DNA of 64,000 bases from Eledone cirrhosa (taxonomy: Eukaryota): NCBI GenBank assembly GCA_964016885.1, contig OZ024746.1, forward strand, positions 57,474,001 to 57,538,000, written 5' to 3'. Both the position numbers and the translations under genes were made by a program. This document shows, in pieces, positions 16,882 through 57,954 of this stretch (position 1 is its first letter; every line of letters starts with the position of its first letter). Below the pieces are notes generated by a model, which saw only the letters and a list, made by a program, of their open reading frames with translations, did no database searches and was not told the origin of the DNA.

Positions 16882-16916
16882 ATAAATAACAAAGAACGCC
16901 TATAGCATATGCATAT

Positions 16917-16974
16917 CTTTACTTGCTAACATTGTTTCATCCGCACTATAAGCGGGACTCATCAGAGCATAAAG
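16917..16974 (-). ncRNA. Type I hammerhead ribozyme
   Basis: Inverted copy of 20178-20235. Confidence 0.82.
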
Positions 16975-17583
16975 GTTAATTACATACCATATAAGCAATA
17001 ACAAATCCAAGACATTGAAGAATGAAAAATAATAGAAGATAAAGGATATTAAGGAAGTAAAAGTAAAAATAAGAATAAAAATAAAAATAAAAATAAAAAT
17101 AAAAATAAAAATAAAATAATAAAATAAACAATGAAAAATAAAGGGTGCTATCAGTCACAGTTGGGCGGGGTGCTGTCAACATATAGTTACATACAAGCAT
17201 ACACATGGATAAGAGAACAGACAAGAGTAGATAAGATAGATAGGATTAGGTAAGAGTAGGTAAAAAATAGGTGAAAAACAGACTTATAATATATATAAGA
17301 AAATATAAAGAAATATATAACAAACTTACATATAAAATATAAAATATACAGATAATAGTAATACAGGGTAAGGAATGAAATAAAATAATATATAATTAAA
17401 ATTAAAATTATATAAAATAGAACATAATATAATATAATCATAAAATAAGATAAAATAAGGTAAACTAAAATAAAATAAAATAGACTAAAGTAAAATAATA
17501 TAATATAAGATATAATTAAATGTAATTAAATAAATAAATAAATAAATAAATAAAATTAAATAAAATTAAAATTAAAATTAAAT

Positions 17584-17623
<40 letters not shown>

Positions 17624-19536
17624 ATGAAATTAAATAAGTAAATAAATAAAATTAGATAAAATGAAATGAAATAAAATAAAATAAAATAAAATGAAATAAA
17701 GTAAATTGAGATAAGATATATATTTTTCTAGAATATGTCTCTTGAATATATCAGGGGCCCACGAAGGCACTAAGTGTCACAGTTATCTGTATCACTTGAC
17801 CATTTTTTAAAAATATATTTCTTGAAAATATCAGGGGCCCACGAAGGCACTAAGTGTCACAGTCAGCAGTATCACTTGACCATTGCAAGGCAATGGAGGC
17901 GTCCCAGGTTGGGCAGTCTCAAAAGTTCACTCGAAAGTCACGGGTGTGCATTCACACAGTTGAGCGGTGGGGTAATCACAAACCGGTTCACACCCGGACA
18001 GGAGTCCAATGGTCAAAGAGAGGTGCATCGAAGGAAGGTTGGAGAATTCACGTGCAGTAGCAAGCGAGGTGCAGGCGGGTTAGCCAAAGCAAGCAGACAC
18101 AGTTGGAGCGCATACAAAAGATATATAAAAAGACAAAAAATATATAAAAAATAGCTTCAAGAGCCATGAATTCACCGCATTGGGACATCACAAGATTGTA
18201 CACATCAATATGTTCAGCACGTATATGCACATATACACACCACATGCATATGCAGAGACGGTATACATATATATATATATATTTTTTTTTATATACAGAC
18301 ATATACAACCACCTACACCCATACACATATAAATGTATACACAGACACACACGCACACACACACAGCGTAGGACACCCGGGTCAAAGCTGATATTAAACA
18401 CCGAAATACCACATTTGGCAAGACCCACCACCACGGATAATACATTCAAAATAAATACATACGATGAGATGTAGTAAAATAAAGTTGAATTCCTACGGAG
18501 ATAATCATGTCCGCACGTGCCATTGCCCGATTCAAGTGTACACTTGAATCGGGCAATGTTATATATTTCTTTATATTTACTTATATATATTATAAGTCTG
18601 TTTTTCACCTATTTTTTACCTACTCTTACCTAATCCTATCTATCTTATCTACTCTTTATTTTACTACATCTCATCGTATGTATTTATTTTGAATGTATTA
18701 TCCGTGGTGGTGGGTCTTGCCTAATGTGGTATTTCGGTGTTTAATATCAGCTTTGACCCGGGTGTCCTACGCTGTGTGTGTGTGCGTGTGTGTCTGTGTA
18801 TACATTTATATGTGTATGGGTGTAGGTGGTTGTATATGTCTGTATATAAAAATATATATATATATGTATACCGTCTCTGCATATGCATGTGGTGTGTATA
18901 TGTGCATCTACGTGCTGAACATATTGATGTGTACAATCTTGTGATGTCCCAATGCGGTGAATTCATGGCTCTTGAAGCTATTTTTTATATATCTTTTGTC
19001 TTTTTATATATCTTTTGTATGCGCTCCAACTGTGTCTGCTTGCTTTGGCTAACCCGCCTGCACCTCGCTTGCTACTGCACGTGAATTCTCCAACCTTCCT
19101 TCGATGCACCTCTCTTTGACCATTGGACTCCTGCCCGGGTGTGAACCGGTTTGTGATTACCCCACCGCTCAACTGTGTGAATGCACACCCGTGACTTTCG
19201 AGTGAACTTTTGAGACTGCCCAACCTGGGACGCCTCCATTGCCTTGCAATGGTCAAGTGATACTGCTGACTGTGACACTTAGTGCCTTCGTGGGCCCCTG
19301 ATATTTTCAAGAAATATATTTTTAAAAAATGGTCAAGTGATACAGATAACTGTGACACTTAGTGCCTTCGTGGGCCCCTGATATATTCAAGAGACATATT
19401 CTAAAAAAATATATATCTTATCTCAATTTACTTTATTTCATTTTATTTTATTTTATTTTATTTCATTTCATTTTATCTAATTTTATTTATTTACTTATTT
19501 AATTTCATTTATTTATTTATTTATTTATTTATTTAC

Positions 19537-19568
<32 letters not shown>

Positions 19569-19598
19569 ATTTAATTTTAATTTTAATTTTATTTAATT

Positions 19599-19638
<40 letters not shown>

Positions 19639-20177
19639 TTACATTTAATTATATCTTATATTATATTATTTTACTTTAGTCTATTTTATTTTATTTTAGT
19701 TTACCTTATTTTATCTTATTTTATGATTATATTATATTATGTTCTATTTTATATAATTTTAAGTTTAATTTTATATTATTTTATTTCATTCCTTACCCTG
19801 TATCACTATTATCTGTATATTTTATATTTTATATGTAAGTTTGTTATATATTTCTTTATATTTTCTTATATATATTATAAGTCTGTTTTTCACCTATTTT
19901 TTACCTACTCTTACCTAATCCTATCTATCTTATCTACTCTTGTCTGTTCTCTTATACATGTGTATGCTTGTATGTAACTATATGTTGACAGCACCCCGCC
20001 CAACTGTGACTGATAGCACCCCTTATTTTTCATTGTTTATTTTATTATTTTATTTTTATTTTTATTTTTATTTTTATTCTTATTTTTACTTTTACTTCCT
20101 TAATATCCTTTATCTTCTATTATTTTTCATTCTTCAATGTCTTGGATTTGTTATTGCTTATATGGTATGTAATTAAC

Positions 20178-20235
20178 CTTTATGCTCTGATGAGTCCCAC
20201 TTATAGTGCGGATGAAACAATGTTAGCAAGTAAAG
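20178..20235 (+). ncRNA. Type I hammerhead ribozyme
   Basis: CTTTA-TGCT-CTGATGA-GTCCCACTTATAGTGCGGAT-GAAA-CAATG-TT-AGCA-ag-TAAAG. Confidence 0.85.
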
Positions 20236-20381
20236 ATATGCATATGCTATAGGCGTTCTTTGTTATTTATTATATCACGGCTCTGTCCTCAGACATCGAG
20301 CTAACCTTATACTGCCTGCTGGATAAGTGGAGTGTTATACACCCCTGATCCTCTCCCTAGTATACTATATATATATATATA

Positions 20382-29734: not shown

Positions 29735-29830
29735 CAGGATTTTTTCATTCTGAGGATTGAAAGCAAAACCTTTTGCTTTTAAGAAACCACTGGTAAATGG
29801 AATAATTGCCTTATGTTGTTTATTACATAA
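29735..29830 (+). mobile_element. Solo pseudo-LTR of the Naiad-type PLE with minimal HHR (29742-29786)
   Basis: Matches 56740-56840; CTGAGGA-TT-GAAA-GCAAAACCTTTTGC-TT. Confidence 0.8.
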
Positions 29831-44344: not shown

Positions 44345-44750
44345 CCTCGTGTGCGTTTTTCATAATCACGCATGATGGTGATCTAGCCTGTTTTAAAATT
44401 CCCTTTTTGGCATATTAATCTGTGAGAATCCTGGTTATCGAGTTGAGCTCTGCTGAGGATTAAATTCCAACCGTGACCATCTCCACTGAAAGTTTTCATG
44501 AAATAGTCTTTAAAACTATACAGAGGATTTGAAGTTTTTCCAAATTGAAGGATGAGTATTTTAAACTTTATTTTATCATGAGTGAAGGCTCTATTGATTT
44601 TTCCCTGGATTTCACTAAATTATGTGGATGAATTTATATCCTGATTCTCTTTGAGATGAGTTTGAATTATTTTTCCCATGTTGACGCTATAGTCACTTAT
44701 AGATTATGGAGTGCTGCTGGCTTTTCGCTGCAGTGATTTCTATACCTTTC

Positions 44751-44755
<5 letters not shown>
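44345..44755 (+). mobile_element. Family G element with HHR-like motif (44447-44526)
   Basis: Inverted homolog at 58357-58800; GCTCTG-CTGA(G/C)GA...TA-CAGAG. Confidence 0.7.
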
Positions 44756-44832
<77 letters not shown>

Positions 44833-44952
44833 AAAATGTTTAACCCCGACGGCAGAGCTCAAGCCGTTTTGACGGCTATTTCTGGACTAATCGTGTGTGT
44901 GAGTGTACACCATAACGCACCAGAAATACCCGTATATGTATATATATATATT

Positions 44953-45088
<136 letters not shown>

Positions 45089-45117
45089 AACCTTTTACAT
45101 ACATATTTACATACATG

Positions 45118-45176
<59 letters not shown>

Positions 45177-45244
45177 TGTTATACTTTGGGAGGGTCATCT
45201 TGCCAATAGGAAACACACGCACCAGTTGCTTTCACTTCAATTTA

Positions 45245-46085
45245 TTATAATACATTTATAAATTTAGGAATTTATAAATGTCCGGTTCGTTGGTTGGTTC
45301 CACAACCAGATGGTTGTTTATATATTGTCAAAGTACTTTCGTCACACATTATGTGACTTCTTGAGTGACTTGGGATTCTTTTCTTCGTTTTTGTGCCTCT
45401 CCGTTGTTCTGTCCTACGCCATTTTGTTTCTGTGTGTGTGTTGACTGCTCAGTCTGCGCATGCGTCACATCTAGGTGTCTGTGTTTGTTTATATTCGTTT
45501 ATTTATTTGTTTATTTACATGTTACAGGTTGGTTGTTCGTTCCATGTGCGTGTGTGTGTTTCATTTAGTCTGTAATTGTAAGTTGTGATGTTGCTGTTCC
45601 ACTCATGTTTTCTATTTAATTTTGGTTGTAATTCTTTTATGTTTATTGCCTCTGTGATTTGTCTAAACATTGCGTCTTTTCTGTGTGTAGATTCTATTTT
45701 TATTTCTCTGTTCTCTAATTTACCCTTATGTTCTATTTTAGAATGTTGGTAGAGTACAGATGATTCTTTACTATCTTGAAGGTCTCGCCAGTGTTCATTT
45801 ATCCGTTCCCCTACACTACGAGCTGTCTCACCTATGTACACTATATTTTTGTCCCTACATTGTCCTTCAGTACATCTTATGCTATATACTACATTTCTAG
45901 CTTTACGGTTAATATGGGGATTAATTTACAGGTTATACATTTCTTATCTATACAGGGGGTCTTTGAAAAGGTTATATCTTGCTAATAAGTGTTTTTTTAC
46001 GGAGGTACCTGGTCTTTCTACTACCTTAATATTGAGTTTCTGTTTATCTAGGGCCCTTCTAATTTTGTAAGCTAATTAACCTCCA
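45245..46085 (-). mobile_element. Penelope-like element 3' part: GIY-YIG endonuclease + 3' repeat with HHR remnant (45327-45369)
   Basis: YIGETARSVGERINEH..RQITEAINIKELQPKLNRKHEW; GTCA-CTCAAGA-A-GTCACA..TGTGAC-GAAA-GTAC-TT-TGAC. Confidence 0.9.
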
Positions 46086-46089
46086 CTAG

Positions 46090-46983
46090 TTAAAACACCC
46101 CCACTAGAGAACAGTCAGAAATTAGAGAAAAACACAATGGAAAGCATCCAGCAAATAGCTAACTCCATCCACCAGAGTAATAGAGTTACTATAGACTACC
46201 AAAGTAAACACCCCAACCATCGATTACCTGTACTAGACACAGAACTCTGGTTAGATACCATTAATAACAAAAAAACAAATACTCCATTCCCATTATGCCA
46301 AACCCATGACTTCCAAATATCTGATCAACCGAAACTCAGCTGTTTCGGACCATACTAAAATCAACATACTGATTGCGGGTGTGGTACGGGTGATGAGAAA
46401 CGTGTCCCGCATGTGCAATCCCGAAGAACTAGAGAGACAGATACAACATTTTGTCCACCGTATGCAGGTCTCTGGTTACAATCAGAGAGATAAAATCAGA
46501 GTGTATAGAGGAGCCAGAACCAAATGGGAAAAAATGGTACATAATGACACAAATGGGCCCTGCCCCTTGTAAGGAGCACATTTTGGAATAGAATAGAAAG
46601 AACTAGGAATAAGGCTAATAGAATAAACTCATGGTATGATAGCAATAAATACCAGAGTGTAATGTTCATCGATACAACCCCTAGAGGTGAATTAGCTTAC
46701 AAATTTAGAAGGGCCCTAGATAAACATAAACTCAATATTAAGATAGTAGAAAGACCAGGTACCTCCGTAAAAACTCTTATTAGCAAGACACACCCATTTC
46801 AAAGCCCCCCCTGTATAGATAAGAAATGTATAACCTGTAAATTAAGCCCCCATATTAACTGTAAAGCTAGAAATATAGTATATAGCATAAGATGTACTGA
46901 AGGACAATGTAGGGACAAAAATATAGTGTACATAAGTGAGACAGCTCGTAGTGTAGGGGAACGGATAAATGAACACTGGCGAA
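46090..46983 (+). pseudogene. Penelope-like RT thumb/linker/GIY-YIG start, inverted relative to the adjacent copy
   Basis: LPVLDTELW, YAKPMTS, C-rich linker, IVYSIRC..YISETARS; frameshifts; 46683-46983 is the reverse complement of ~45786-46084. Confidence 0.9.
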
Positions 46984-47636
46984 TCGTAAAAGCACATATC
47001 GTTATATGCTTTTTCTATGAAAATTAGTAGTGGGCAGACTAATTTGCATAGAGTGTGAGTAAGTACCGGTTCAACGGAGACGATAAAAACAAATAACGAA
47101 ACGAAATTAAATTTCGTTTCGTTTGTAACTCACTTTTGTATGACGAAATTTAATTTCGTTTCGTTATTTGTTTTTATCGTCTCCGTTGAACCGGTACTTA
47201 CTCACACTCTATGCAAATTAGTCTGCCCACTACTAATTTTCATAGAAAAAGCATATAACGATATGTGCTTTTACGATTCTCTAGAAAGGCCGGAAGATAG
47301 GTAAATATTGCTGATGAGTTGTAACAACAACGAAACTAGTTCAATATTCCTTGTCTGGCTTTCTGGAGAATAGAGGAAAGGTGTTTCCTCAAAAACCAGT
47401 ATGACTCTAAAAACCGGTTTGTCTGTGTGTTTACATACAGAATAGCTGGCCACTCACAGTAAAGTGACCAGTGAAAAAACTTGGTACATCTACATATGTA
47501 TACGTGTGTGTATTCATATACATACTAGTATTTCAGTATACATATATGGATGTACATCTTTAACTTAATTGTTTAAGCGTCAGTCATACAAAAGTGAGTT
47601 ACAAACGAAACGAAATTTAATTTCGTTTCGTTATTT

Positions 47637-50733: not shown

Positions 50734-50795
<62 letters not shown>

Positions 50796-51230
50796 CAGGT
50801 ACACATACATATATGCACGTATCAGTTTAGTGGACGCTTATTATAACGCCGCTTTGCTCGTTTGTAAACAAACTGAACAGCCTGATTTTATGCCGTACGG
50901 TGTTAAGGCAACCACGTCACCTTTTTGTTCAACACTGACACAGGAACGATGTACTAGTTTCAAGCTTGTTAGCTATCATCAGCACCGTATACCCTTCTGC
51001 CAGATAGTTGAACGTTCGAAAGTATATACTTTCCTTATGAAAATTAACGGCTGAGCAGCCTAATTTACATAACGAGTGAGTTAAGTCGGGCAGGCATACC
51101 GAAAACGATAAGTTGAAATAAAATGAAAACGAAATTTCATTTCTCACTCTTAGTACGGCACTTACTTAAATGTAAGTATGTATGTATACGTACATACATA
51201 TATGTATACAGGCGTACAGTAGCATGCATA

Positions 51231-51266
<36 letters not shown>

Positions 51267-51824
51267 CAGGTACACATACATATATGCACGTATCAGTTTA
51301 GCCGACGCTTATTATAACGCCGCTTTGTTCGTTTGTAAACAAACTGGACATCCTGAATTTATGCCGTAGGGTGTTAAGGCAACCACGTCACCTTTTTGTT
51401 CAACACTGACACAGGAACGATGTACTAGTTTCAAGCTTGTTAGCTATCATCAGCACCGTATACCCTTCTGCCAGATAGTTGCACGTTCGAAAGTATATAC
51501 TTTCCTTATGAAAATTAACGGCTGAGCAGCCTAATTTGCATATCGAGTGAGTTAAGTCGGTCAGGCATACCGAAAACGATAAGTTGAAATAAAATGAAAA
51601 CGAAATTTCGAAAGTTCAACTATCTGCCAGAAGGGTATACGGTGCCGATGATAGCTAACAAGCTTGAAACTAGTACATCGTTCCTGTGTCAGTGTTGAAC
51701 AAAAAGGTGACGTGGTTGCCTTAACACCGTACGGCATAAATCCAGGCTGTTCAGTTTGTTTACAAACGAACAAAGCGGCGTTATAATAAGCGTCCGCTAA
51801 ACTGATACGTGCATATATGTGTAC

Positions 51825-52970: not shown

Positions 52971-55900
52971 CACATACACATACATACACATACATACTTA
53001 CTAACATACACCTATATACCTACACACACATATATACATACACATACGTATGCATACGTACACACACACACACACACATATACATATATAACTCAATATA
53101 TATATATATATATATATATGAGAAAGAACAAAAATAATATAAAATAAAAAATAAATATTTTATATATAAAAAAATTTGACAAGTAGTAAATAAAAAAATA
53201 TATATATATGTATATATTTCGAAAAGGGTATACATGCCCATAGCAGACCTAGAGCACTCAATAAGTTCATGGGGCAAAAGATCAATGAAATATTCATCAA
53301 ATCATTATATATAAAGATGCACATACATACACCCTAATACAATTATACATATACACACACACATACACACAGTCACATAAAATTGTATACATACACACAC
53401 ACACACACAAAAACCCCAACCACAGAAATACAAACACACATAGAAAAACGTATATATACATATATATATATCTATATATACACACACATAGGAAGAAGCC
53501 TGACCCTATTGCATAGCTCAGGCCTTTTCTGAGGCTATGATATAAAAACACACAAAACCATTATATAAAAACTTAATATCTAAAAATAAAAAAAATGTTG
53601 GTTTGTGAAGGGTAAGGCAAAAATAGGGGGTAAAAGGAGGGGGAAAAATGACATAGGAAAAGGTTTAAATATAAGGGGAAATATGGGAGAAAGAGAATAC
53701 AAGAGTACAGAACCTGGATTCAGCAGGTAAAAAAAACCCTAGTAGAAGTAAAGAGCAGAGAAGGAGTTCAAGGCGGTTGAGTTATCATAGGAATGTTAAT
53801 CCAGTTACAGATCAGATGTGATTTCAGATGAGGACAACATCTGAAGATCTTGGTCTTTGAGTTCAGGCAAGCAGAAGTAGCTTTCAAGTTTAGCAAAATT
53901 TTATATTTTTCTGTGGTACACAAAGAACAATTCTTTGTGCCCCTTTGGTACTCCCTCGAAAGGTCTAAAATAGAACAATCGATAGAGTACGGGATGTTTT
54001 TATCCTTGAATTCCCACACCTTACTTGCGAGGGCCGTTGTTGTTCGTTTATCGGAGTGCTTAAAAGAAGCGACATGTGAGTAAAACCTGGTTTTAAACCT
54101 GTCCTGGGTCATGCCGACATATCGCTCACTCCTGGCTGTCTGGTTGTTGATTAAAGCTGTTATTTTAGCCTCATAAACAACAGATTTGGTGTTACATTTG
54201 CCCTGCAATGGGCATTCATCCGGCTTCCTGCAACTGCATCCTGGATTTGTTCTCGTATGATTTGAATTGGTGATCTTGGACTTCATAGATGGGCAACAAG
54301 AGTAACTGATCTTAACTACGTTCCTATTAAATATCTTATAATATCTATGATTAGGAGGAAAATGTTTATCTAAGAGTTCAAGGAATTTCCTTCCTACATT
54401 AGTTTTGACAGTTAGAGAGAAGGGGGGGGTGTAAACCAAATCATTTTCCTTTTCCTGTTATTGTGGTTAGTTTTAGAGGGGCGAGTAGGTAAATAATAAA
54501 TGTGTTCAGTTAAACCGCTGTTCTTAAGGGCTTTATTATAATAAGGGGCGGCTTTATTAAAAATGTCTATAGACGAAGATAAGGTAGAAATCCTACAGCT
54601 AATGTTGGGAATAAGATTATTAAAAACTATAGTGGGGTGGTAAGACACTTTGTGTATATGCCTAAGACTTTCATTCGCTTTATGATAAGGTTTAAAAGAG
54701 GCGGTAAGTAGATCAAGAGTAATATCAAGAAAGTTAGCATTGGTAAGGTTCATATCTATAGTGATTTAAAGGTTAAGATTAGCAAAGGTATTGATTAAAT
54801 ATTTACGGAATTTATCAAGGTTATGGCCGTTGGTGATATGAGAAACTGACAATCCGTCATCACGGTATAAACCGATATTATGGGAAGGAAATTTCTCTTT
54901 GAGGGTGTGGAGAAGGAATAATCCTACTAAGTCACACACATCCGCACTGTCATATGAACCCATTGCAACATAAAAAAGAGTTTTCTGTGTTTGACTTTTT
55001 AACCCAAATATTTTCATTAGTAAAGAGTAAAGTTTTTCTAGCATGAAAGATAATGTCTTTTTCTAATTTAGAAATATTAATGAAGGGTCTTGTAAACTCT
55101 AAGGCATTAATTAATAAGGAAACAGTAATAGAGGGGTAAAAATCAACAATATCAAATTGGGTAAATCTACACTTATTTTTACCTTGTATATTATTAAACC
55201 AAGAAAAAACAGAGGAAGTATTTAGCCACTGTGATAGGTCAGTCTTAGTTCTAATTTGGAGAATTATTTTTCTTAAGATTTTTTTTACTTGCAAAGCCAA
55301 CTTAGGATTTAGCCTGGTTAATCAGTCTACAACTAGGTCGATTAGTAAAGTCTACTTTATGGTCTTTAAGGGTAATATATACTTTACTCTTAGCTAAGCT
55401 TTCAATCCGGTTGTCTATTTTTAAAGAACTAGCTAGTTCTTTAGCTTCTTTATTAATAGTATTGTAAGTATTATTATTAGTTAATTGATATTTGTTGGTG
55501 ATACTATTAGTTAAAAGTTTGTTATACAAAGTACTATTAACTTCAAAGAGATTTTTAGTTTTATCAGAAAGAACAAAGGTGTTTGTAGAATTTTTAAAAT
55601 AAGAAATATCTTTAGACAGTTTAGTTTGAAAGTTATTATTGTACTTACGAAATTTGATATCACTAATTAAATTAACAATGTCTAATTCGAAGTTGACCAT
55701 GTCTTTAATTCTAGGTGGATATTTACGGGATTCTATGTCAAAACAATCATTAGTATCAACACTGAATAGTCCATCGTAAACCATTGCCTTCCATCTCATT
55801 CTTTTAACGACTTGTTCGATTTTATCTATAAGAATTTTGGTATAATTTGTGTTGGAAGGAGTAGGTATATTTTTGATTGAATAATCCAATTCATAAAGGT

Positions 55901-56325
55901 CCATGGTGTATGTCGGTTAATTCCTGAAAACTGTAGAGTGCTCAACTAATCGGGCTGGAAAGTGCCTATCGTATATGTAATATAGAATATGCTTCAATCA
56001 ATCCCCGTTGGAGTTGTATAAATGAAGTAATTCCTACGGAAAAGTCCAGGAAGAAAGAGTGCTCTATGTAGGTAACAGAGCTTAATAGTTATGTAATAAA
56101 CTACATAAGGCAATTATTCAATTTACCAGTGGTTTCTTAAAAGCAAACAATTTTGATTTCAATCATCAGAAAGAAAAAATCCTGGTCTATTTATTGAATT
56201 GGATTTTTAAAAAACAAAAATGCAGTCTATATGAAAGTGAGGCTGGAGAAGGAAGAAGGAAAGGAAAATTAAATAAAAACACACATGCAAACACGCACAC
56301 ACACACACACGATTATATACACCAC

Positions 56326-56356
<31 letters not shown>

Positions 56357-56615: not shown

Positions 56616-56834
56616 GTGGATGTATATAATCGTGTGTGTTTGCATGTGTGTTTTTATTTTATTTGTCCTTTCCTTCTCCAGCCTCACTTTCATATAGACT
56701 GCATTTTTGGGGTTTTTTAAATCCAATTCAATAAATAGACCAGGATTTTTTCCATTCTGATGATTGAAAGCAATTTTTTTTGCTTTTAAGAAACCACTGG
56801 TAAATGGAATAATTGCCTTATGTTGTTTATTACA

Positions 56835-56840
<6 letters not shown>
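51975..56840 (-). mobile_element. Near full-length Penelope-like retroelement (Naiad-type) with direct pseudo-LTRs (~51975-52260, ~56017-56290) and an inverted pseudo-LTR (~56630-56840)
   Basis: Repeats read directly; each carries a minimal HHR core CTGATGA-TT-GAA(A/C). Confidence 0.9.
53768..55904 (-). pseudogene. PLE RT + GIY-YIG ORF broken by stops and frameshifts
   Basis: YSIKNIPTP, KRMRWKA, CRLIN, FDIVDFYPSI, MGSYDSADVCDLVG, YRDD, FLDITLDL, CSCRKPDECPLQGKC, VVY..YVG, CSLC..EK, LN. Confidence 0.95.
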
Positions 56841-56910
<70 letters not shown>

Positions 56911-57034
56911 TATATGGATGTATATATAATGTATTTTGCAATACACTTTATGCTTAATTAAAAGCATTTTGAAGACCGTATGCTATTGCTTTAGAGTAGT
57001 GACAAATTCACTAACTTTAATCTCAGGAAACAGG

Positions 57035-57095
57035 GGAGATAAGCCGACAAGGCCTTGTTTCGCATTTATTGATGCTTATCAAGGCTAACTACTCC
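57035..57095 (-). ncRNA. Type I hammerhead, U3-A8 variant
   Basis: GGAG-tagtt-AGCC-TTGATAA-GCAT-CAATAA-ATGC-GAAA-CAAGGCCTTG-TC-GGCT-tat-CTCC. Confidence 0.85.
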
Positions 57096-57352
57096 GTCCT
57101 GTCTACCGAGATCACTGATTTTATATTCTTTTAGAATTCTAGTAAATAATCAGGAACTGATTATACAGAGCGGTTGTTGGTCAGGCAGAAATTAAAAATT
57201 AGAATTGGAGCTCTGAAATAGCAATATATATATGGATGTATATATAATGTATTTTGCAATATACTTTATTCTTAATTAAAAGCATTTTGAAGACCGTATG
57301 CTATTGTTTTAGAGTAGTGACAAATTCACTTAATTTAATCTCAGCAAACAGG

Positions 57353-57413
57353 GGAGATAAGCCGACAAGGCCTTGTTTCGCATTTATTGATGCTTATCAA
57401 GGCTAACTACTCC
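57353..57413 (-). ncRNA. Type I hammerhead, U3-A8 variant (second tandem copy)
   Basis: Identical motif to 57035-57095. Confidence 0.85.
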
Positions 57414-57527
57414 CTCCCTCCTAATTTTTAATTTCTGCCTGACCAACAACCTCTCAGTATAATCAGTTCCTGATTATTTACTAGAATTCTATAAGAATAT
57501 AACATCAGTGATCTCGGTAGACAGGAA

Positions 57528-57588
57528 GGAGTAGTTAGCCTTAATAAGCATCAATAAATGCGAAACAAGGCCTTGTCGGCTTATCTCC
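57528..57588 (+). ncRNA. Inverted copy of the family H hammerhead with core mutation (TTAATAA)
   Basis: Same stems; G5 changed to A. Confidence 0.7.
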
Positions 57589-57954
57589 CCTGTTTGCTGA
57601 GATTAAAGTAAGTGAATGTGTCACTACTCTAAAACAATAGCATACGGTCTTCAAAATGCTTTTAATTAAGCATAAAGTGTATTGCAAAATACATTATATA
57701 TACATCCATATATATATTGCTATTTCAGAGCTCCAATTTTAATATATATATATTGCTTCACCATTTTGTTTCTTTTCCCTCGCGTCCCCTTTATTTACGT
57801 GTCCCAACGACTTTTTTTAGCCGTTGCTCGCACCAACCGGAGGTATATGGTCTTTAAAGCGATGAAATGCCTATGAAGGTTGGAAGATCACTGATGAAGG
57901 ACAAACTTTTTTCATATGTAACCCATTTGCAACTCCGCAGCGCCCTTATTATCA

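Follow-up and report, generated by a model that had tools for sequence, protein, structure and literature searches.

According to the accessible text of the published reports, hammerhead ribozymes in which the C3-G8 pair covaries to U3-A8 occur in nature and are described as active in vitro (Perreault et al. 2011, PMC3088659), and the hammerheads of Penelope-like elements (PLEs) of Schistosoma mansoni include ~1,300 U3-A8 hits (Cervera and de la Pena 2014, PMC4209133). Non-LTR retrozymes are described, in the parts of these sources available to us, as tandem low-GC units carrying type I hammerheads (Cervera and de la Pena 2020, PMC7229834; Li, Clavereau and Pollet 2026, 10.64898/2026.07.22.740005), whose circles are expressed in coral, mussel and axolotl and for which PLEs have been proposed as the movers (PMC7229834; 10.64898/2026.07.22.740005). 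The same partial texts report that the invertebrate retrozymes tested mostly cut as monomers (PMC7229834), that 8 of 9 Xenopus dimer elements were uncut in vitro (10.64898/2026.07.22.740005), and that dimer cleavage through a palindromic stem III is known (PMC6765202). For PLEs, inverted truncated copies are given as the standard layout, often with a tail at one end only (PMC8557442; PMC3846280); the tail matches two internal RT start sites, and in the anole PLE cleavage was dispensable for insertion (PMC11167929, accessible sections).

We analysed an insertion in a 64,000-nucleotide stretch of Eledone cirrhosa DNA (the whole stretch is hereafter called the window). Judged by its sequence, the element has the make-up and the presumed mode of action of an animal non-LTR retrozyme with Penelope-type ends, as opposed to those of an autonomous PLE. 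The insertion probably represents one genomic copy of a non-LTR retrozyme whose non-coding unit of 318 nt carries a U3-A8 hammerhead predicted to cut only as a dimer; a Penelope-like RT-endonuclease likely inserted it in trans. No part of this is new in kind, as U3-A8 cores, dimeric hammerheads and one-sided tails have all been published; the additions made here are a traced core swap, a predicted monomer lock and a counted end rule. In the literature covered (mostly non-subscription main texts) we found no report of the 318-nt family, nor of a core swap traced through subfamilies or of this inhibitory monomer fold.

Organization of the locus

The insertion and its surroundings comprise the following parts (positions are those of the window):

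56908..57417, minus strand: left arm, 510 nt or 1.6 tandem units, 5'-truncated at unit position 127
56908..57225, minus strand: one complete 318-nt unit, 33.6% GC, non-coding
57418..57420, unstranded: head-to-head junction of both 5'-truncated arms, 3 nt between arms
57421..57743, plus strand: right arm, inverted 323-nt copy, 5'-truncated at unit position 24, 3' end at site B
57716..57743, plus strand: Penelope-type 'tail', 28 nt past the unit boundary, right arm only (cf. PMC8557442, Fig. 2 legend)
56839..56907, unstranded: left (TA)n target tract, which doubles as the inverted-arm end of an unrelated Penelope-like neighbour
57744..57753, unstranded: short right (TA)n tract
57046..57363, minus strand: candidate circle, a predicted 318-nt RNA from double cleavage

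The original prediction had taken 56908..57742 as a 318-bp tandem, which is correct for the 510 nt (1.6 units) of the left arm; the remainder, 57421-57743, is an inverted third copy. Neither this head-to-head, Penelope-type arrangement nor the predicted dependence on a dimer figured in that prediction. The left arm's second unit is a 5'-truncated 192 nt that is 96% identical to the first, and the arms of the inverted repeat are 97% complementary over 295 nt. The truncated 5' ends meet at the junction and the 3' ends point outwards into (TA)n. The left arm ends 3' at site A, without a tail, and runs into (TA)n, its exact end being ambiguous across 56908-56915 because of TA identity with the target; the tail of the right arm reaches ~35 nt past the earliest possible A end. 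Since both ends sit within (TA)n, a target-site duplication is unreadable.

The unit shows the attributes of a retrozyme: it is tandem, AT-rich, dispersed in many copies and non-coding (longest stop-free frame in a three-unit concatenation, 34 aa sense and 52 aa antisense), with one hammerhead per unit. Compared with animal non-LTR retrozymes as the accessible text describes them (PMC7229834; 10.64898/2026.07.22.740005), it shares a low-GC, non-coding unit with one type I hammerhead, short tandems, thousands of copies and a proposed PLE mobilization, and its 318 nt fall, as had been suggested, within the 150-450 nt range of the class. Unlike the retrozymes described there, most copies carry U3-A8, and stem III is a 12-nt palindrome instead of 1-2 bp plus a short loop; and in place of their long arrays we find mostly short head-to-head insertions, known from sequence alone.

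Hammerhead motifs and selection on the fold

Three hammerhead motifs are found in the insertion:

57021..57111, minus strand: hammerhead 1, type I, core UUGAUAA (U3-A8) at 57082-57076
57075-57062, minus strand: stem II of hammerhead 1, followed by its palindromic stem III (57058-57047) and the predicted cut after C17 at 57046
57353..57413, minus strand: hammerhead 2, intact UUGAUAA at 57400-57394, predicted cut after C17 at 57364
57528..57588, plus strand: hammerhead 3, core UUAAUAA, G5A at 57543

The TTGATAA core had been noticed before in both tandem copies, and indeed it lies on the minus strand in two places exactly 318 nt apart. Other features proposed for these copies were recovered as well: a stem II of 4 bp with a 6-nt loop, a 12-nt palindromic stem III (ACAAGGCCTTGT, present in the minus-strand hammerheads), a GUC site with C17 at the two positions given above, and a stem I that is interrupted by an internal loop after 4 bp and then resumes. 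The palindrome ACAAGGCCUUGU stands in each of the two minus-strand hammerheads. The third copy, absent from that description, has the core TTAATAA (G5A), and this core is likely dead, since the change hits G5, a residue essential in the hammerhead core. Stem I of hammerhead 1 is lengthened by a 12-bp covarying helix; hammerhead 2 is without the 5' strand of this long extension, which was removed by the 5' truncation of the arm. The elements of a type I hammerhead are present (3-8 pair, UGA, GAAA and NUH site, with U3-A8 in copies 1 and 2 and G5A in copy 3), together with the internal loop in stem I and a conserved loop 2 that starts with CAA. In Rfam the three motifs match HH9 only below threshold (19.5, 19.5 and 16.9 bits, cut-off 52).

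We aligned the window copy with ten subfamily representatives (n=11) and observed that 96.9% of cells are paired and that 13 of 27 pairs changed on both sides, cell counts that overstate the number of events because the 11 representatives are related along one lineage. The covariation score was reached by 0 of 500 shuffles, and slid controls were 32-43% paired. Changes on both sides were seen in all four stem II pairs, in one proximal and five distal stem I pairs and in two stem III pairs, and covariation supports three helices open at stem I, the type I arrangement. Stem III varies in length from 9 to 12 nt across the representatives, staying palindromic or nearly so. The case for selection on the hammerhead lies in this covariation of core and stems across subfamilies: judged from the alignment, the catalytic fold is under strong purifying selection across subfamilies that are 72-100% alike, and the hammerhead of the locus is genuine and, at family level, under selection.

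The core pair 3-8 across the family

The family is dispersed, with thousands of copies, in a 3.0-Gb genome. A 40-mer spanning the core has 152 genome matches (0 in the control), and the CTGATGA version of the same 40-mer has 0 in the context of this subfamily. TTGATAA was found in 52 of the 55 cores from the 30 loci of a first search (two of which are one place). The original prediction had named a CTGATGA family consensus, with these copies as decayed exceptions, as the outcome that would speak against it; the consensus is U3-A8, and this consensus and the covariation counts rule out chance decay. A looser pattern (6,699 matches, 332 in the control) exposed relatives with C3-G8. In family context, the whole genome holds 4,127 U3-A8, 689 C3-G8, 32 U-G and 42 C-A motifs (controls all 0), so that 3-8 is paired in 4,816 of 4,890 motifs; the 74 mismatched cores are scattered over many subfamilies, as expected of mutation after insertion. 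Strict CUGANGA descriptors thus overlook 4,127 of the 4,816 paired cores (~86% of the family), a loss that had been foreseen, as had the status of U3-A8 as a known natural variant, published for hammerheads in nature (PMC3088659) and in PLEs (PMC4209133). The accessible part of the former gives several scattered U3-A8 examples; here there are 4,127 motifs of one mobile family.

Clustering of 191 distinct segments gave seven multi-copy and seven single-copy clusters, with average identities to the window unit of 72-76% for the C3-G8 clusters and 80-95% for the U3-A8 clusters. In a tree of 41 rows (midpoint root, core columns included), all 11 C-G rows, plus one row with an unreadable core, fall on one side of a 100/100 branch. 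Since this single branch separates C-G from U-A subfamilies, the sequences indicate that the swap is a single ancestral event. Its direction was probably from C-G to U-A, because divergence is highest in the deepest C-G subfamily and because CUGAUGA is the core of a distant cousin family. Divergence from the own consensus is 3.8% in the deepest C-G subfamily and 2.3% in the window's subfamily; against a simple age order, another C-G subfamily stands at 2.8% and two U-A subfamilies at 3.2-3.3%. The double change had been put forward as a sign of selection, and this stands for the covariation across subfamilies; the two window copies are not independent evidence, because the double change is one ancestral event.

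The unit repeats itself without an ORF, and the subfamilies keep the hammerhead by compensatory change, including one C3-G8/U3-A8 swap, which is unusually well documented in this 318-nt non-LTR retrozyme or non-autonomous Penelope-like element. As far as the accessible text of PMC4209133 goes, PLE pLTR hammerheads are similar in their type I topology, palindromic stem III region, U3-A8 covariation and opposite-strand pairs 100-700 bp apart; unlike those, the present family has a full-size hammerhead with a long covarying stem I in an ORF-less repeating unit, and both core states can be traced in one subfamily tree. The subfamily series provides natural C3-G8 and U3-A8 hammerheads on nearly the same scaffold, with a stem III of 9-12 nt.

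Insertion ends and arms

For the ends we used 296 arms from 164 loci (170 less 6 duplicates), a non-random set of top matches or first-listed pattern hits. Two fixed 3' ends, ~30 nt apart, account for 263 of the 296 arms, with 134 arms stopping at site A and 129 at site B, the latter 20-38 nt into the next unit; the other 33 end elsewhere. The 5' ends are scattered. Arms are paired head-to-head in 110 cases and tail-to-tail in 3, and 76 of the 296 are unpaired. Among the pairs with both ends classed (n=85, 25 dropped), 77 are A+B, 6 B+B and 2 A+A (p ~1e-15); A+B was also found in 48 of 55 pairs of the pattern-picked subset, and the window insertion is A+B. Both end types were seen by eye in the deepest subfamily too.

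This is the layout of PLE insertions, with a partial tandem plus an inverted 5'-truncated copy and a tail of 30-40 nt that fits two RT start sites and is often at one end only. In the available text of PMC8557442, PMC3846280 and PMC11167929, endonuclease-positive PLEs share the partial tandem with the inverted, 5'-truncated copy at the 5' side, the one-end tail of 30-40 nt, the AT-rich or (TA)n targets and the two RT start sites; unlike them, the present family has no RT/GIY-YIG ORF and no pLTR homology to a sampled autonomous family. The tail at one end only, described for PLEs as optional in these texts, is counted here (77 of 85).

The long inverted repeat formed by the insertion is also what a DNA-level fold-back element, or a satellite with terminal inverted repeats, would show, the hammerhead then being a relic. 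Such an origin is highly improbable and largely refuted by the arm-end statistics, as the 3' ends are fixed and the 5' ends scattered, arm lengths are unequal, 76 of the 296 arms lack a partner and the tail sets the two outer ends apart; moreover, selection acts on the ribozyme fold. Twin priming of the L1 kind on a single linear RNA fits a few loci by eye and was rejected for the set because the 5' ends are scattered.

The 5' ends do not pile up at the cut site (1 of 165 high-identity arms, 3.6 expected), and the insertions therefore hold no trace of a cleaved template; where eight ends coincide at unit position 177, the alignment seems to have broken in diverged subfamilies. The cut site is crossed by 234 of the 296 arms, and 40 carry two or more hammerheads, with a maximum of six. 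The longest arm in the sample (L140:2802-4870) has six near-identical 316-nt units.

In the arms with a similarity of at least 91% to the window unit, the sharing of rare alleles is 32% for units of one arm, 7% for opposite arms and 0.5% for different loci, and minor subfamily variants agree at 81%, 60% and 8%, respectively. These values suggest a common source variant for both arms in most, though not all, cases; an equal arm-sharing signal could result from gene conversion or from a single dominant source locus, and within-arm sharing could arise from later tandem duplication.

The lack of a pile-up of 5' ends at the cut site and the many arms that cross it also agree with a template that is an uncut linear multimer of the same element, inserted in the same Penelope-type manner and with no circle, in which case the hammerhead would be slow or dependent on a PLE protein and have a minor role in processing. 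The accessible part of PMC11167929 lends this some precedent, the anole PLE ribozyme being protein-assisted and uncut RNA the main substrate. We nevertheless consider it unlikely. Against it stand the catalytic fold, which is under strong purifying selection in subfamilies that are 72-100% alike, and the arms of up to six near-identical units, which with the 32% within-arm sharing fit rolling on one template. The one-A-one-B rule and the between-arm allele sharing constrain models of inverted insertion built on two in vitro start sites.

Search for an autonomous partner

An ORF with RT and GIY-YIG between pLTRs was found neither in the insertion nor consistently attached to family copies. ORF and tblastn screens of the loci L001-L170 yielded no autonomous partner, a profile of the unit found no ORF-linked pLTR in these loci or the window, and neither contains an autonomous element using the 318-nt unit as its pLTR. 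Searches from two older subfamilies and from the distant cousin returned only further non-coding units.

These screens bear on the alternative that the arms are truncated ends (solo pseudo-LTRs) of an unsampled autonomous Penelope-like element and that the unit is not self-propagating. All end features do match PLE insertions, and the loci read were ~200 of several thousand, with flanks of 1.5-3.5 kb, chosen by unit similarity. Against it, longer arms continue into the next unit and not into an ORF, both in the window-type and in older subfamilies, no ORF is consistently attached and the unit profile leads to no ORF-linked pLTR; we regard it as improbable.

The element next to the insertion (53300-56340, minus strand) is a Penelope-like element, degraded but of almost full length, in which a region resembling GIY-YIG lies at the C-terminus. 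It gave no Pfam match, and we infer it to be Hydra-like; a Naiad is ruled out, as in Naiads the endonuclease is N-terminal. Its pLTR bears a CUGAUGA hammerhead, a further copy of which lies at 29750 on the plus strand, and its inverted, 5'-truncated arm (56617-56838, plus strand) ends in the (TA)n into which the retrozyme inserted. It is excluded as a parent by its lack of homology to the unit.

A few copies are joined to PLE sequences: to a Neptune-like PLE in L105:1284-1842, L155:2377-3889, L168:2117-3050 and, for the cousin family, L217:614-1900, and similarly to a Hydra-like ORF in L065:3336-5311. The Neptune-like joins do not point to that PLE as the partner, three of the four breaking the one-of-each end rule; those in L155 and L168 fit a later deletion or insertion equally well, and the retrozyme-PLE joins as a whole are ambiguous between template switching and later deletion. 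The 53 non-TA 5' flanks of unpaired arms are heterogeneous. In the Neptune-like autonomous family itself, one short and one long end were found in 5 of the 7 loci with at least two of its ends.

A weak profile match of the unit led to the cousin family (L201-L230, seed L036:1650-1746), which is distant, non-coding and of similar size, with 1,445 first-look candidates. The core of this cousin is the canonical CUGAUGA and its stem III is palindromic and short; it shares the head-to-head layout and has a similar motif at the 3' end. Another (TA)n-associated family (L144-L148), with CUGANGA hammerheads and a stem III of the ACAGUGCUGU type, apparently has two 3' ends too; it is not alignable to the 318-nt unit.

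Predicted monomer lock and proposed mechanism

Folding calculations, which use an energy model that ignores tertiary contacts such as that between loops 1 and 2, predict that in single hammerheads the end of stem I and U3-U4-G5 pair with the 5' half of stem III. The predicted probability of the active monomer is ~1e-4 in the window subfamily and <1e-3 in six of the seven multi-copy clusters. For two copies of the window subfamily, the minimum-energy fold is an active double hammerhead (-52.3 kcal/mol); this structure is the dimer minimum in 6 of 13 parsed clusters, lies within 2 kcal/mol of it in 5 and is far off in 2. The left arm of the window likewise folds as a double hammerhead, with a probability of 0.84 for the cross-unit stem III, and the circular unit keeps the core sequestered (z -4.3). 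By this model the hammerhead is predicted to cut only as paired copies, a dimer dependence resembling that of the axolotl retrozyme in the accessible text (10.64898/2026.07.22.740005; PMC7229834).

The inhibitory helix is 93% paired across the representatives, and position 3 and its partner occur as C-G, U-G and U-A, a covariation that reflects few events within a single lineage. Changing the core to C3-G8 in silico raises the predicted probability of the active monomer ~90-fold, from 1.8e-4 to 1.5e-2. U3 is nevertheless not required for the lock, because three of the four natural C3-G8 clusters are likewise predicted to be locked.

A stem III of 4 bp plus a tetraloop can form and could permit monomer cutting. 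The hammerhead might then cut efficiently as a monomer, with the palindrome and the alternative pairing as by-products of stem III growth and no switch, as the partial text on coral and mussel, whose monomers cut, would allow (PMC7229834) and as the few events behind the covariation of the alternative helix would permit. This seems quite improbable, given that stem III keeps its palindromic or near-palindromic character while its length changes from 9 to 12 nt, whereas a monomer hairpin needs no palindromic centre, and that the active monomer is predicted to be so rare in six of seven clusters.

On the reading that we favour, a retrozyme mobilized in trans, arms with at least two hammerheads, such as the left arm, would be transcribed. 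Neighbouring hammerheads would then form a pair by means of the 12-nt palindrome, and cleavage at the two GUC sites would free an RNA of 318 nt for a host ligase to circularize, if coral, mussel and axolotl are a guide. The beginning of the core is predicted to pair with stem III in a monomer or circle, leaving the RNA uncut and copyable through its own cut site. A Penelope-type enzyme, to which the layout points, would nick both strands of the (TA)n tract and prime on each strand at one of two internal sites that lie ~30 nt apart; head-to-head joining of the two 5'-truncated copies would follow.

More tentatively, and with considerable doubt, we hypothesize a conformational switch combined with a dimeric Penelope enzyme that primes both DNA strands at two fixed sites on one circular RNA. 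With the growth of stem III into a palindrome of 12 nt and the change of the core to U3-A8, the beginning of the core would have acquired its pairing with stem III, such that monomer and circle would be locked and two-unit transcripts cut. One tail per insertion would follow from the priming of both strands on one circle by such an enzyme. If true, the family would document, on the scale of a whole genome, the way in which inverted insertions are made by Penelope-type enzymes, and it would directly support PLE mobilization of animal retrozymes. Independently of this switch, an ORF-less 318-nt family bears a counted PLE end signature, which touches on the proposal of PLEs as movers of animal retrozymes; this question and that of the inverted PLE insertions are both testable with short RNAs.

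Other repeats in the window

Further repeats were observed in the window. At 44750-47000 there is a head-to-head insertion of a PLE with a weak GIY-YIG match, which we take to be Neptune-like from its motifs; at ~46980 the plus arm of this insertion meets a different family that bears a hammerhead (core at 47311, plus strand). A 471-bp tandem repeat (50757-51609; 1.8 copies, 96%) belongs to a family that recurs several times in the window. Both arms of a large inverted repeat at ~16900-20250 carry a canonical type I hammerhead (16965, minus strand, and 20187, plus strand, for the cores), and an 80-bp tandem and an A-rich tract are found in it as well.
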